DNA of 3,435 nucleotides, taken from IMG/VR virus record IMGVR_UViG_2778261688_000003, one strand, 5' to 3'. The translations under genes were made by a program, and so were the position numbers. Positions 1 to 3,435 of this stretch are shown piece after piece. The notes below the pieces were generated by a model. The model had not been told where the DNA came from. It saw nothing but the letters and a program-made list of their open reading frames with translations, and did not search any database. Positions within the stretch are counted from its first letter, which is position 1. Each line of letters starts with the position of its first letter. The stretch is from a virus. Lineage: Duplodnaviria; Heunggongvirae; Uroviricota; Caudoviricetes.

Positions 1-489
1 ATGTTGGATGTATTTACTCCATTGTTGAAACTTTTTGCTAACGAGCCACTCGAAAGACTTATGTATACGATTATCATTTTTGGTCTCACTCTCTGGCTGA
101 TACCGAAAGAGTTTACTGTCGCATTCAATGCTTATACTGAAATACCTTGGCTCTTTCAGATTATCGTTTTTGCCTTTTCTTTCGTGGTCGCCATTTCCTT
201 CTCAAGATTGCGAGCACATATTCAAAAGCATTATTCATTACTACCAGAGCAACGAGTATTGCTTCGTTTATCTGAGAAAGAAATCGCTGTATTTAAAGAT
301 TTCCTTAAAACAGGAAATCTTATTATCACTTCTCCTTGCCGTAACCCGGTTATGAAAAAATTAGAACGGAAGGGCATCATTCAACATCAGAGTGATAGCG
401 CAAACTGTTCTTATTATCTCGTCACCGAAAAATACTCCCATTTTATGAAGTTATTCTGGAACAGCAGGAGTAGACGTTTTAATCGTTAG
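1..489 (+). CDS. sieB: Superinfection exclusion protein B (SieB-like), 162 aa, small inner-membrane protein
   Basis: Complete ORF ATG(1)..TAG(487-489) from the six-frame track. Two hydrophobic helix-length segments (MYTIIIFGLTLWLIPKEF; IPWLFQIIVFAFSFVVAISF) followed by a charged C-terminal half. Size and sequence recalled as matching Rac prophage SieB; not verified by search. Confidence 0.8.
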   Translation: MLDVFTPLLKLFANEPLERLMYTIIIFGLTLWLIPKEFTVAFNAYTEIPWLFQIIVFAFSFVVAISFSRLRAHIQKHYSLLPEQRVLLRLSEKEIAVFKDFLKTGNLIITSPCRNPVMKKLERKGIIQHQSDSANCSYYLVTEKYSHFMKLFWNSRSRRFNR

Positions 490-641
490 CTTACTGTGTG
501 CTTCTCCAACCATCGGCGCGCACCAGTTTCGGTTTTAAATGTTTTGCTTTTGGTATACGTCATGGCAGTGAACGTTCCATCCTGGTTGGGGAACACGCCG
601 CACACCAGGGATTCGTTGTTGCCGAGGTCGATTTTTTGCAT
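486..641 (-). CDS. ydaF: Small prophage protein, 51 aa (YdaF-like), function unknown
   Basis: Hand translation of the minus strand: ATG at 641..639, TAA at 488..486, product MQKIDLGNNESLVCGVFPNQDGTFTAMTYTKSKTFKTETGARRWLEKHTVS. Below the size cut-off of the supplied ORF track. The 51-aa size and position between sieB and ydaG match the Rac gene order as I recall it. Only a weak SD (GAGA). Confidence 0.6.
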   Translation of the reverse strand: MQKIDLGNNESLVCGVFPNQDGTFTAMTYTKSKTFKTETGARRWLEKHTVS

Positions 642-651
642 TTTGCGAATC

Positions 652-786
652 TCACATCTTGTTGCTACGTATAGCGACTTCTGCCTGCCAGAGATCCCAG
701 TCGTTGCTGCGTAAAGCCTGCACAGCCTGGTTGTAAGTGATACCGCAACAATCCATCAAATACTGAACTACTTCGTAATGCACCAT
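652..786 (-). CDS. ydaG: Small prophage protein, 44 aa (YdaG-like), predicted single three-helix UBA-like domain
   Basis: Hand translation of the minus strand: ATG at 786..784, TGA at 654..652, product MVHYEVVQYLMDCCGITYNQAVQALRSNDWDLWQAEVAIRSNKM. Strong SD AGGGGAGAG (revcomp of 792-800) about 6 nt upstream of the ATG. Size and position match Rac ydaG as recalled. Confidence 0.7.
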   Translation of the reverse strand: MVHYEVVQYLMDCCGITYNQAVQALRSNDWDLWQAEVAIRSNKM

Positions 787-955
787 CTTATCTCTCCCCT
801 TAACGCCGGGTGGCGGAACTAACTGCTGCACTGCAAAATTTGAATCCCGCCGTCATGTTCATACGCCTCGGGCTGGCTACTTAACCCCTTACCACTGCCT
901 GGTAACTCGAAGTATTGCCCGGCGTTCTGTGGGGCGGGGTGGGTGGTATGCTGGA

Positions 956-984
956 ACTATAGGTAATGCCTAATTGATTGTCAA
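956..984 (-). promoter_or_regulatory. PL-like leftward sigma70 promoter: -35 TTGACA (984..979), 17-nt spacer, -10 TATAGT (961..956); predicted TSS near 949
   Basis: Read directly on the minus strand: consensus -35 hexamer and a 5/6 match -10 with optimal 17-nt spacing. It points toward ydaG-ydaF and is flanked or overlapped by two palindromic operator sites. Confidence 0.5.
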
Positions 985-997
985 TAGGCTATGCCTA
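960..997. promoter_or_regulatory. OL-like operator: two palindromic sites TAGGT-AAT-GCCTA (960-972) and TAGGC-TAT-GCCTA (985-997), centres 25 bp apart
   Basis: Same 5-3-5 palindrome family as the three sites between racR and ydaS. The sites sit within the promoter spacer and directly upstream of the -35, mirroring the OR arrangement. Confidence 0.5.
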
Positions 998-1094
998 ATG
1001 TTTTGAGCGTAACCTAATAGGTGATGGCGACAGCAGAAAGTGATGGGGGGGTTAAATAACGGAATCCAGGAGTTTTCCGTCAGACCATATAAGT

Positions 1095-1571
1095 TTAAGT
1101 TCCAGTTTTTGTGATGTTCTGGCTTTTCCGTTCAGATTCAAGAGCTTTCAGATACTTACCCACTTTCATTTCCATCGCTGCTATGTAGGCGCGAACATCG
1201 TGGTCAACCCAATCTGGTTCTGTAGCATTTCCAGATAACAGGAAAGCTACAATCGCTCTTATTTCATCAGAGGCTGCTTGATAAAGGTTGTTTATATCTA
1301 AAAGTTCACTTTTTGTATCTGAATTGGTGGGGGTTGGTATGGGGTATTCGTTAAGCCCCCAATGCTCTGGACCAACAACATCAGAAAAGAAACGCCATAA
1401 TTCTGGAAGTTTATCTTTACTTATAGAGCCTTTCTTAATCCAGTCATAAATTGATGGTGGTTGGACTTTAAAGTGGCGTGCGACCTCCGCCTTTGATTTG
1501 ACGGATCCCGATGCGATTTTTTTGTTAATGGCCTGCTCTATCGCTCGGCCTAAGTCTTTACCACTAAGCAT
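1095..1571 (-). CDS. racR: Prophage repressor RacR (CI-like HTH repressor), 158 aa
   Basis: ORF from the track, minus strand, ATG at 1571..1569, TAA at 1097..1095. SD AGGAG (revcomp of 1583-1587) 11 nt upstream. N-terminal HTH-like segment (KAEVARHFKVQPPSIYDWIKKG). Divergent from a Cro-like gene across an operator-rich intergenic region. Size and sequence match RacR as recalled. Confidence 0.88.
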   Translation of the reverse strand: MLSGKDLGRAIEQAINKKIASGSVKSKAEVARHFKVQPPSIYDWIKKGSISKDKLPELWRFFSDVVGPEHWGLNEYPIPTPTNSDTKSELLDINNLYQAASDEIRAIVAFLLSGNATEPDWVDHDVRAYIAAMEMKVGKYLKALESERKSQNITKTGT

Positions 1572-1593
1572 TGCTTAATATTCTCCTATGCGC

Positions 1594-1622
1594 ATTACAT
1601 TAGGCAATCCCTACCCTTACTG
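1594..1622 (-). promoter_or_regulatory. Candidate racR maintenance promoter (PRM-like): -10 TGTAAT (1599..1594) with a poor -35 region between operator sites 1 and 2
   Basis: 5/6 -10 hexamer on the minus strand about 23 nt upstream of the racR ATG, with no recognisable -35 (CAGTAA). This would fit an activator-dependent promoter with a very short leader, but it is weakly supported. Confidence 0.25.
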
Positions 1623-1664
1623 CATTAGGCACAGCCTATTGACAATTGCGTTAGGCGTCGCCTA
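1601..1664. promoter_or_regulatory. OR-like tripartite operator: TAGGC-AAT-CCCTA (1601-1613), TAGGC-ACA-GCCTA (1626-1638), TAGGC-GTC-GCCTA (1652-1664); centre spacing 25 and 26 bp
   Basis: Three 13-bp palindromes (5-3-5) read directly from the sequence. The racR-proximal site is the most degenerate (CCCTA half-site), analogous to a weak OR3-type site. Confidence 0.6.
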
Positions 1665-1668
1665 ATAT
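1639..1668 (+). promoter_or_regulatory. PR-like rightward sigma70 promoter for ydaS-ydaT: -35 TTGACA (1639-1644), 18-nt spacer, -10 TAATAT (1663-1668)
   Basis: Consensus -35 with a 4/6 -10 that retains T at -12, A at -11 and T at -7. Operator site 3 lies in the spacer and site 2 abuts the -35. ydaS SD GGAG (1683-1686) is 8 nt before ATG 1695. Confidence 0.55.
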
Positions 1669-1694
1669 TTCTGTGTGTTTTTGGAGTTCATTCG

Positions 1695-1991
1695 ATGAAA
1701 AAAGAGAACTATTCATTCAAGCAAGCTTGTGCTGTTGTCGGTGGGCAATCAGCAATGGCTAGGCTTTTAGGTGTATCACCTCCAAGCGTAAATCAATGGA
1801 TCAAAGGGGTACGTCAATTGCCTGCCGAGAGATGTCCAGCAATTGAACGTGCAACAAGAGGTGAGGTTCTGTGCGAAGAACTTCGTCCTGATATTGACTG
1901 GTCATATTTACGACGTTCGGCATGTTGTTCGCAGAATATGTCAGTGAAGCAACTAAATGACAGTAACAAATCCTCATTTGATCATACCTGA
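1695..1991 (+). CDS. ydaS: Cro-like HTH DNA-binding protein YdaS, 98 aa
   Basis: ORF from the track, ATG 1695 to TGA 1989-1991, good SD. First gene rightward of the repressor, in the Cro position. HTH-like segment (QSAMARLLGVSPPSVNQWIKG). Size matches Rac YdaS. Confidence 0.88.
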   Translation: MKKENYSFKQACAVVGGQSAMARLLGVSPPSVNQWIKGVRQLPAERCPAIERATRGEVLCEELRPDIDWSYLRRSACCSQNMSVKQLNDSNKSSFDHT

Positions 1992-2013
1992 AACATCAAG
2001 AGGCAAATGATTC

Positions 2014-2436
2014 ATGAAAATCAAGCATGAGCACATCGAATCAGTGTTGTTTGCCCTAGCAGCCGAAAAAGGGCAGGCATGGGTAGCCAATGCAATTACT
2101 GAAGAATATCTGCGCCAGGGGGGCGGCGAATTGCCCCTGGTTCCAGGCAAGGACTGGAACAATCAGCAGAATATCTATCACCGTTGGTTGAAAGGTGAAA
2201 CGAAAACGCAAAGAGAAAAAATTCAGAAGCTGATCCCAGCAATTCTGGCAATCCTTCCGCGCGAGCTGCGTCACCGACTCTGCATCTTCGATACCCTGGA
2301 ACGCCGTGCATTACTGGCGGCGCAGGAAGCGTTAAGTACGGCAATTGATGCGCATGATGATGCAGTCCAAGCCGTTTACCGGAAAGCGCATTTCAGCGGC
2401 GGCGGTTCTTCCGACGATTCTGTCATTGTTCATTAA
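2014..2436 (+). CDS. ydaT: YdaT, 140 aa, CII-position protein of the Rac early-right operon
   Basis: ORF from the track, ATG 2014 to TAA 2434-2436. SD AAGAGG (1998-2003) 10 nt upstream. Follows ydaS after a 22-nt gap. Size and sequence match Rac YdaT as recalled. Confidence 0.88.
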   Translation: MKIKHEHIESVLFALAAEKGQAWVANAITEEYLRQGGGELPLVPGKDWNNQQNIYHRWLKGETKTQREKIQKLIPAILAILPRELRHRLCIFDTLERRALLAAQEALSTAIDAHDDAVQAVYRKAHFSGGGSSDDSVIVH

Positions 2437-2499
2437 GCAAAAGTTTCCATGCTGTTTGTGCTTATTCTAAGCCACCGGGCAGCATCATACGGGGCAATT

Positions 2500-3435
2500 A
2501 TGGCCGCATTACCATACATGCAACTGTACATAGCTGATTACCTGGCTGACACCATGCATTTGTCAGCAGAGGAGCATGGTGCGTATTTGTTGCTGATGTT
2601 CAATTACTGGCAAACAGGAAAGCCAATACCTAAAAACAGGCTGGCAAAAATTGCCCGTCTGACTAACGAGCGATGGGCTGATGTTGAACCATCCTTGCAG
2701 GAGTTTTTTTGCGATAACGGCGAGGAATGGGTGCATCTTCGGATTGAGGAAGATCTGGCATCAGTCAGGGAAAAATTAACCAAAAAATCAGCCGCAGGAA
2801 AAGCATCTGTTCAGGCCAGAAGAAGCAGAAAGGAAGCAGATGTTCAAACAAAACAAGAGAGAAATTTAACAGGTGTTCAAACAGATGTTGAAGTGGTGTT
2901 TGAACATGATGTCAACACAAAGGCAACTAATAAAGATACAGATAAAGATCTAAAAACAGATCCCCCCCTAAATCCCCCCCGGGGGAATCGAGGTGTCAAA
3001 AAGTTTGACCCTCTGGATATTACTTTGCCGAACTGGATTTCTGTCTCGCTTTGGCGTGAGTGGGTTGAATTTCGCCAGGCATTGCGAAAACCGATTCGAA
3101 CGGAGCAGGGCGCTAACGGGGCGATAAGCGGTCGCGAGACGTTACGGGCTCTGGAGGCTAAAACCGGTGCATCAAGGTATTACATAAGCACTCTCGCCAG
3201 AGAACTAGTCGCCAGTGGTGATGTTTACAATTCAGGCTACGGATTATTCCCGTCTGAGCAGGCGCGTAAAGACTGGCAAAACGCCCGCAAAAAACTATCA
3301 AGGACAAAGGTGAAGAAACCGGTTGTGGTTGATCCTGACCTTATCTGGTCATTACCAGACGGAGAAATACGCCGTTACGACAGGCGTCTGAACATAATCT
3401 GTCGCGAGTGCCTGAAGAGTGAAGTTATGCAGTGA
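2500..3435 (+). CDS. ydaU: YdaU-like DUF1376-family prophage protein (putative replication-initiator position), ending at the window edge with TGA
   Basis: Long ORF 2449..3435 in the track. The start is placed at ATG 2500 (M18) because the sequence MAALPYMQLYIADYLADT... looks like the conserved family N-terminus and a G-rich SD-like element (GGGG 2491-2494) precedes it. ATG 2449 and ATG 2518 lack an SD. Start choice is uncertain. Confidence 0.75.
   Translation: MAALPYMQLYIADYLADTMHLSAEEHGAYLLLMFNYWQTGKPIPKNRLAKIARLTNERWADVEPSLQEFFCDNGEEWVHLRIEEDLASVREKLTKKSAAGKASVQARRSRKEADVQTKQERNLTGVQTDVEVVFEHDVNTKATNKDTDKDLKTDPPLNPPRGNRGVKKFDPLDITLPNWISVSLWREWVEFRQALRKPIRTEQGANGAISGRETLRALEAKTGASRYYISTLARELVASGDVYNSGYGLFPSEQARKDWQNARKKLSRTKVKKPVVVDPDLIWSLPDGEIRRYDRRLNIICRECLKSEVMQ
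2837..2919. repeat. Iteron-like cluster inside ydaU: TGTTCAAACA direct copies (2841-2850, 2874-2883), inverted copy TGTTTGAACA (2897-2906), CAGATGTT (2837-2844, 2882-2889), degenerate copy GATGTCAACA (2908-2917)
   Basis: Read directly from the sequence. Followed by an A-rich stretch (2920-2960) and two C7 tracts. Position in the linker of the putative initiator gene resembles the arrangement of lambda ori inside gene O. Confidence 0.4.

Follow-up and report, generated by a model that had tools for sequence, protein, structure and literature searches.

YdaG of the Rac prophage as a predicted free-standing UBA-like protein encoded by the first gene of the early-left operon

Sequence comparisons and structure prediction support a UBA-like three-helix fold for YdaG, the 44-residue product of the first open reading frame (ORF) of the leftward operon that is under the control of RacR in the Rac prophage of Escherichia coli. 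The predicted fold is a known one in an unusual setting, that of a free-standing protein encoded by a prophage. We think it probable that this acidic protein, which is predicted to fold on its own and is closest in sequence to the UBA domains of the UBA_4/p47/FAF/DCN1 type, functions as an early protein binder. The prediction gives one of the many unannotated miniproteins of the best-studied bacterium a fold, together with a surface whose role in binding can be tested, and indicates that a UBA-like domain can stand alone as a 44-residue phage protein in a host that is free of ubiquitin.

The ydaG gene and its operon

The window (the whole stretch of DNA that was analysed, 3,435 nt) is from the immunity region of the Rac prophage of E. 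coli, and many E. coli chromosomes contain positions 1-3126 with 100% identity. The plus strand contains sieB (1-489), ydaS (1695-1991), ydaT (2014-2436), and an ORF derived from ydaU (2449-3435). The minus strand contains ydaF (486-641), ydaG (652-786; 44 codons and a stop codon), and racR (1095-1571; RefSeq annotation), the repressor gene directly upstream of the PL region. ydaF encodes a 51-residue DUF1391 protein (Pfam E-value 1.9e-28) and follows ydaG, with 10 nt between the ydaG stop codon and its own start. Translation of positions 652-786 on the minus strand gave MVHYEVVQYLMDCCGITYNQAVQALRSNDWDLWQAEVAIRSNKM, followed by the stop codon. This ORF is annotated as a CDS in RefSeq and appears in E. 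coli chromosomes as the 'phage protein' WP_000233809.1, with ydaF and racR on either side. A reading of the window made from the sequence only had placed a 44-residue YdaG at exactly these positions, and the motif that it quoted corresponds to residues 6-39.

Two other aspects of the window were evident from the gene map. The stop codons of sieB (plus strand) and ydaF (minus strand) overlap by 4 nt at 486-489 and the genes are convergent, so that transcription of sieB runs against the leftward operon that contains ydaG and ydaF. In addition, none of the complete E. coli genomes that were searched was collinear with the window, and none of the 5426 genomes spans the junction at 3126/3127. In the Rac prophage of strain BR1220, there are 1801 bp between the parts of the window at 1-3126 and 3127-3435, and these run from the end of ydaU through the complete ydaV and a DUF1627 gene to the start of a DUF977 gene. 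The junction, which is without microhomology, creates an in-frame fusion between ydaU (DUF1376) and the DUF977 gene, giving the 328-residue ORF at 2449-3435, and it represents either a rare deletion or a composite sequence.

The region between racR and ydaG has the anatomy of an early-left promoter. A consensus scan identified a putative, PL-like sigma-70 promoter, TTGACA-17-TATAGT, with 11 of 12 matches on the minus strand at 956-984 (read from 984 to 956). Two operator-like palindromes, TAGGnnnnGCCTA, overlap this promoter at 960-978 and 985-1003. The palindromes (960-1003) belong to a repeat family that is also found at the racR/ydaS promoter (1652-1670), and a 35-nt inverted repeat links positions 977-1011 with 1612-1646. 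The first ORF with a Shine-Dalgarno sequence downstream of the PL-like promoter is ydaG, which is preceded by a predicted transcribed leader of approximately 160 nt, from the predicted start site to the gene (787-949, minus strand). Published RNA-seq data indicate that lowering RacR increases the amount of ydaG RNA by a factor of approximately 40 or more (PMC6765115), and derepression of ydaG upon loss of RacR was also described in two other studies (PMC11014345; bioRxiv 10.64898/2026.09.06.749655). The anatomy of the operon and the published derepression support the placement of ydaG in the sequence-only reading as the first gene of the early-left operon.

In two prophages with unrelated repressors and operators (loci L003 and L007), the leader (787-949) was conserved from just past the -10 element, indicating that there is a mosaic boundary approximately at the start of transcription. 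In two other loci (L006 and L008), the sequence up to approximately 35 nt before the ydaG ATG was replaced, and the promoter was a different one. Because these loci contain ydaG behind a different and short leader, the 160-nt leader is dispensable. The 160-nt leader had no match in Rfam and no notable RNA structure, with a folding z-score of only -1.6.

ydaG appears to be a genuine protein-coding gene. There is a Shine-Dalgarno sequence, GGGGAG, that we read at 794-799 on the minus strand, and its spacing to the ATG at 786 is 7 nt. The sequence CCGCCACCCGGCGTTAA[G/A]GGGAGAGATAA before the ATG was kept in all eight loci that were compared, with one polymorphic base, and approximately 35 nt before the ATG were conserved in the eight loci, even where the sequence further upstream was different. 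The Shine-Dalgarno sequence and the conserved stretch of approximately 35 nt favour the 44-residue start over the GTG at 831, which would give a protein of 59 residues. Pairwise pN/pS values between diverged alleles of ydaG ranged from 0.07 to 0.44, indicative of purifying selection, and the changes were concentrated in the loops and the C-terminal end of helix 3. The gene was present in 1486 of the 5426 complete E. coli genomes (at least 90% DNA identity). There were 19 alleles among 134 metagenomic and viral loci, nearly all of them full length, and ydaG was also present in induced, packaged Rac-like phages.

In three database proteins (P0019, P0020, and P0026), frameshifts or deletions have joined YdaG to sequence from further downstream. 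Among such proteins are one of 163 residues, in which the downstream sequence is unrelated, and a 97-residue form that frameshifts into ydaF. These fusions show that decay of the module is continuing in some strains.

Evidence for a UBA-like fold

YdaG matched UBA families and no other families in Pfam. The match to UBA_4 (PF14555) had a score of 24.1 bits, above the curated gathering cut-off of 21.8 (E-value 3e-5), and aligned residues 5-35 of YdaG with positions 2-32 of the 43 in the profile. The remaining matches were to UBA_8 (E-value 0.006) and UBA_HYPK (E-value 0.098), and there was nothing else. Seven of the eight natural alleles of YdaG also matched UBA_4 (E-value of 0.1 or less). As controls, we used nine shuffled versions of YdaG and the reversed sequence, and none of the ten matched a UBA family. 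For two of four divergent homologues (described below), UBA_4 was the sole Pfam match, in the same register and below threshold (E-value approximately 0.03; 14.3-14.4 bits). The other two had no Pfam matches.

The similarity to UBA domains was also detected by comparing alignments. We used hhalign to compare an alignment of 12 YdaG sequences with the UBA domains of p47, DCN1, and FAF2/ETEA (verified as PDB 1v92_A, 8or2_F, and 2dam_A). The score was 22.4 over 35 columns (P = 1.3e-4). Shuffling the columns gave scores of 8.6 +/- 1.9, and none of 400 shuffles reached 22.4, placing the real score approximately 7 standard deviations above the shuffled ones. In the hhalign register, G15 of YdaG falls on the loop glycine of p47 (G17) and NDWDL falls on GWDL. 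Positions that are typically conserved in UBA domains are a glycine in loop 1 (M-G-F/Y or T-G motif), A-L in helix 2, and A...L/I in helix 3. Within the YdaG alignment, L25 and A35 were invariant and W30 and D31 were nearly so. By contrast, position 15 was variable, with S, D, or N taking the place of glycine in every member of the divergent clade and in several natural alleles, and two sequences had V in place of A24. Based on the UBA_4 match above the gathering score, the absence of matches in the ten controls, and the hhalign score relative to the 400 shuffles, we conclude that the UBA-like pattern noted in the sequence-only reading goes beyond chance.

There was no match to the Pfam UBA/TS-N family (PF00627) at an E-value of 1 or less. 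The conserved TS-N motif of EF-Ts is absent from YdaG, and the motif positions read CCGITYNQAVQAL. YdaG has no NCBIfam family, and its PHROGs family, phrog_14709, is annotated as unknown function. Neither YdaG nor a divergent homologue matched a PADLOC defence-system model at an E-value of 1 or less. A search of the PDB with the single YdaG sequence gave no match at an E-value of 10 or less. The lone match in a profile search of the PDB was to an ankyrin-repeat word, HYEVVQYL, which we dismissed.

The predicted structure of YdaG is a three-helix bundle that most closely resembles UBA domains. Using the alignment of 12 sequences, to which the divergent clade had been added, AlphaFold2 predicted helices at residues 2-14, 18-27, and 32-43, with a pLDDT of 88 and a pTM of 0.66. 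Just one of the five models reached this pLDDT; the others were at 68-73. We searched the PDB with the pLDDT-88 model using Foldseek, and by our count, 47 of the best 50 matches were UBA or UBA-like chains. These matches had TMq values of 0.68-0.87, rmsd values of mostly 0.5-1.7 A, probabilities of 0.77-1.0, and E-values of 0.08-2, which are individually non-significant because a domain of 44 residues is tiny. They included NAC, the FAM100B UBA, EF-Ts N-domains (among them E. coli 1efu_B), the TAP/NXF UBA (TAP-C), USP5/13/28, TNK1, FAF1, Cbl-b, Ddi1, TDP2, p47, ETEA, OTUD7A, HHR23A, HYPK, and E2-25K. A first AlphaFold2 model, made with eight near-identical sequences (pLDDT of 74), gave incoherent Foldseek matches in the PDB and BFVD and was discarded.

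Together, the structure prediction, in which nearly all of the solved structures closest to the model are UBA or UBA-like, and the profile searches, in which UBA_4 and the weaker UBA_8 and UBA_HYPK were the only families assigned, bear out the guess in the sequence-only reading that YdaG has a minimal UBA-like three-helix domain. Our literature search found no paper connecting YdaG with UBA, nor any study on the function of ydaG, ydaF, or DUF1391 in E. coli. A review describes YdaG no further than as a predicted three-helix miniprotein (PMC13348028).

The ydaG-ydaF module and the predicted role of YdaG

ydaG and ydaF constitute an early module that is independent of immunity. In the metagenomic and viral set, ydaF was downstream of ydaG in 127 of the 131 loci with room for it, and ydaF also accompanied ydaG among the matches listed in complete E. 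coli genomes. The pair was found directly behind at least eight unrelated types of repressor, in the slot that is racR in Rac. These included RacR, three 139-residue HTH proteins, a type with 153 or 154 residues, a DicA-like type with 135 residues, and CI/LexA-like proteins of 212 and 215 residues. With so many types of repressor, it is less likely that YdaG targets one repressor or operator in particular. We believe that marking ydaG-ydaF as a conserved, immunity-independent early module is useful for phage biology, and that its target is worth finding.

ydaG is accessory to the repressor-ydaF slot. In loci of the Qin/DicA type (L015-L019 and L021-L024), ydfA, a DUF1391 gene that is homologous to ydaF, was directly after the repressor and there was no ydaG, indicating that the slot can be occupied without it. 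Translated in the +1 frame, the sequence directly upstream of ydfA (...GVKGK) is similar to the one that precedes ydaG (...PPPGVKGR). This similarity suggests that the two kinds of locus have a leader/RBS segment in common, and that ydaG may have entered it by insertion or been lost from it by deletion.

We found a divergent clade of YdaG by its position, by examining the sequence upstream of ydaF homologues. The clade consists of 46-residue proteins, MGRNEVIRYLMDSCSVSFSVALQALRDKGWDMVLAHCELQEQYYQG and three relatives (P0028-P0031), with 36-41% identity to YdaG, and sequence searches seeded with the Rac YdaG alone had missed it. The order of genes is repressor, YdaG-like, and YdaF-like, as in Rac (for example, L020:2349-2489 and L080:2501-2641). 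The contigs with this clade are labelled as Proteobacteria MAGs. Between the two clades, YdaF was 82% conserved, compared to approximately 40% for YdaG. The far better conservation of YdaF and the presence of ydfA without ydaG are a weak argument against an obligate YdaG-YdaF pair.

Word-indexed protein searches found no homologue outside of the YdaG family, even at an E-value of 10 or less, and in a search of 1.84 billion representative proteins, the matches beyond Escherichia were spurious and to multi-repeat proteins only (ankyrin, FN3, and Cna-B-like). A weak tblastn match in a gut contig, MT838574 (MT838574.1), was to a Firmicutes-type membrane protein in an unrelated context, and we rejected it as a YdaG homologue. 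The same contig encodes two adjacent membrane proteins (L161:64-660 and L161:820-1323) with UBA/TS-N-like starts, for example AEKLVEKCGITYEEAGEVLKEADYDLLEAMIILE. In these proteins, the UBA-like N-terminus is followed by a DUF4342-like or transmembrane part, and they are an example of a bacterial UBA-like N-terminal domain.

We propose that YdaG is an early modulator that would bind a host factor or else a phage protein that is conserved, for example YdaF. The product of ydaG, encoded in a PL-type operon that is repressed by RacR in Rac-like lambdoid prophages, would be made immediately after derepression or infection. YdaG has a pI of 4.8, with two arginines (R26 and R40) and one lysine. As a bundle of 44 residues, it would be too small to accommodate a catalytic site and would lack a basic surface, and is most likely purely a protein-binding domain. 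UBA-like domains bind via loop 1 and helix 3, and the binding face of YdaG would be the usual one, made up of loop 1 (C14-G15-I16) and helix 3. Because ydaG is kept unchanged behind many different repressors, YdaG probably binds a protein of the host, or one that is conserved in the phage (such as YdaF), and not the immunity repressor. We infer the binding role and the nature of the partner from a predicted fold that is able to do little but bind and from the position of ydaG as the first gene after PL, alongside analogues of KilR, Ral, and Gam.

Work in yeast is compatible with a UBA-type binding face on this scaffold. According to a preprint, continuous evolution of the E. coli ORFeome in yeast converted YdaG to an inhibitor that is specific for the ubiquitin ligase Ubr1, while the wild-type protein had no activity in the yeast Ubr1 degradation assay; the inhibition by evolved YdaG was presented as a de novo function, with UBA mentioned nowhere in the text (10.1101/2025.03.22.644768). 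We translated the variant described as 'A17T, V18M, C30Y, V38M' and found that the numbering includes the 16-residue ASKA His-tag, so that the evolved mutations in native YdaG are V2M, C14Y, and V22M. The supplementary table of that study gives A17M and the text gives A17T (10.1101/2025.03.22.644768); the translated variant has T. C14Y is also found in natural alleles of YdaG (P0010 and P0012). By gapless spacing to A24-L25, C14 would be at the 'M' of the canonical M-G-F ligand-binding loop of UBA domains. A UBA-like scaffold makes the evolution of a Ubr1 inhibitor less surprising and offers a simple reading of why YdaG emerged from the whole E. coli ORFeome. The site of C14Y also suggests that the UBA-type ligand face may be the functional face of YdaG.

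We considered whether YdaG might be a generic three-helix miniprotein whose likeness to UBA domains is convergent, with no shared ancestry or mode of binding. We judge this to be unlikely, though it deserves serious consideration. The family is confined to Escherichia-type prophages, neither the 1.84 billion representatives nor the word-indexed searches provided a bridge to cellular UBA proteins, and the divergent homologues are below the Pfam threshold. Moreover, this type of scaffold is the most designable of the small helical types, de novo HHH miniproteins were among the fold matches (8f53_0 and 5uoi), and the review cited above (PMC13348028) lists YdaG as a three-helix miniprotein. However, convergence does not readily account for a Pfam match above the curated cut-off with UBA families alone, for the agreement of Pfam and hhalign on the register, including G15 with the p47 loop glycine and NDWDL with GWDL, or for the 47 of 50 best fold matches that are UBA-type instead of a mixture of HTH and homeodomain proteins. 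It is more doubtful still that the ORF has no function as a protein and is either a remnant in decay or an upstream ORF that is translated only for coupling to ydaF. Rac is a cryptic prophage, the gap to ydaF is just 10 nt, truncated, frameshifted, and fused versions are known (P0018, P0026, P0019, and P0020), and the literature search gave no reported phenotype for ydaG. Nonetheless, ydaG is under purifying selection, its 19 alleles in 134 loci are nearly all full length, it has been kept in a clade with 36-41% identity and in induced, packaged Rac-like phages, and its product is foldable and family-like.

A three-helix protein that adjoins the immunity region could be a small HTH DNA-binding regulator (similar to Cro, Xis, or an antirepressor) that acts on the prophage switch, and the first, low-confidence model matched fragments of HU/IHF and FtsK-gamma, at E-values above 3. 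We consider this very improbable. There was no HTH family in Pfam at an E-value of 1 or less and no HTH protein among the best 50 fold matches of the better model. The pI is 4.8, helix 3 is acidic or neutral with no arginine or lysine in its N-terminal half, and ydaG is unchanged behind at least eight repressors and sets of operators, and so is not specific to one immunity. We give even less credence to YdaG having the function of lambda N, that of a transcription antiterminator, on account of its place in the first slot after PL. The N-like position downstream of PL and the operators, and the conservation of the 160-nt leader across heteroimmune prophages, are as expected for N, but the leader has no Rfam match or significant structure and is absent from two loci that have ydaG (L006 and L008), relatives of the Qin type have no ydaG at all, and YdaG lacks an arginine-rich motif. 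An acidic protein with two arginines, no arginine-rich motif, and no HTH match is unlikely to be either a DNA-binding regulator or an N-type antiterminator. Lastly, YdaG could be a true prokaryotic UBA domain that would bind a ubiquitin-like (beta-grasp) protein of the host, or would mimic the N-domain of EF-Ts on EF-Tu, as a counter-defence or host-takeover factor. One candidate target would be the Ubl of conjugation defence systems of the Bil type or the CBASS Cap2 type. The fold, the position in the early-left operon, and the ease of evolution into a Ubr1 blocker are what bring this reading to mind, and we regard it as highly speculative and very unlikely. We favour the early protein-binding modulator proposed above.

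Comparison with known systems

A UBA-like fold in bacteria is best known from EF-Ts, whose N-domain contacts EF-Tu and is a protein-binding module. The N-domain of E. coli EF-Ts (1efu_B) matched the YdaG model with a TMq of 0.68 and an rmsd of 1.6 A over 38 columns, and that of another EF-Ts (1xb2_B) matched with a TMq of 0.81. The alignment of the EF-Ts N-domain and YdaG is gapless, with approximately 20% identity. YdaG differs from the TS-N domain in that it is a whole protein of 44 residues with no EF-Ts core, does not match PF00627, and is without the conserved motif. The sequence-only reading had compared YdaG to the EF-Ts N-domain, and this comparison holds for the fold; the closest sequence family is UBA_4/p47/FAF/DCN1.

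The best structural matches to the YdaG model were the UBA domains of NAC and HYPK. The top NAC match (9syr_Na) had an E-value of 0.076, a TMq of 0.78, and an rmsd of 0.6 A. Other matches included an archaeal NAC (1tr8_A) and HYPK (6c95_D and 5nnp_C), along with the weak match to Pfam UBA_HYPK. NAC and HYPK are ribosome-associated factors of eukaryotes or archaea, and their sequence similarity to YdaG is below family thresholds.

In operon position, timing, and small size, YdaG is similar to CIII, Kil, Ral, and Gam of lambda and to KilR of Rac. The small early-left proteins of lambda bind and inhibit a host protein. There is no relationship in sequence or fold between any of these proteins and YdaG, and the likeness that we propose is one of functional analogy only.

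The closest likeness is to domains of the UBA_4 type (PF14555), which are the N-terminal domains of p47/NSFL1C, FAF1, FAF2/ETEA, and UBXN7, with the UBA of DCN1 being related. These domains bind ubiquitin or NEDD8 and occur within large proteins that belong to the ubiquitin/p97 system of eukaryotes, whereas YdaG is an entire prophage protein. To our knowledge, E. coli has no ubiquitin, and the fold of YdaG thus says little about its ligand. UBA_4-type structures (1v92, 2dam, 2dal, and 3e21) matched the YdaG model with TMq values of 0.69-0.82, and what YdaG has in common with this type is a length of approximately 40 residues, three helices, the hydrophobic register, the glycine that the Rac protein has in loop 1, and a third helix with the pattern '..L...nWDL..A'.
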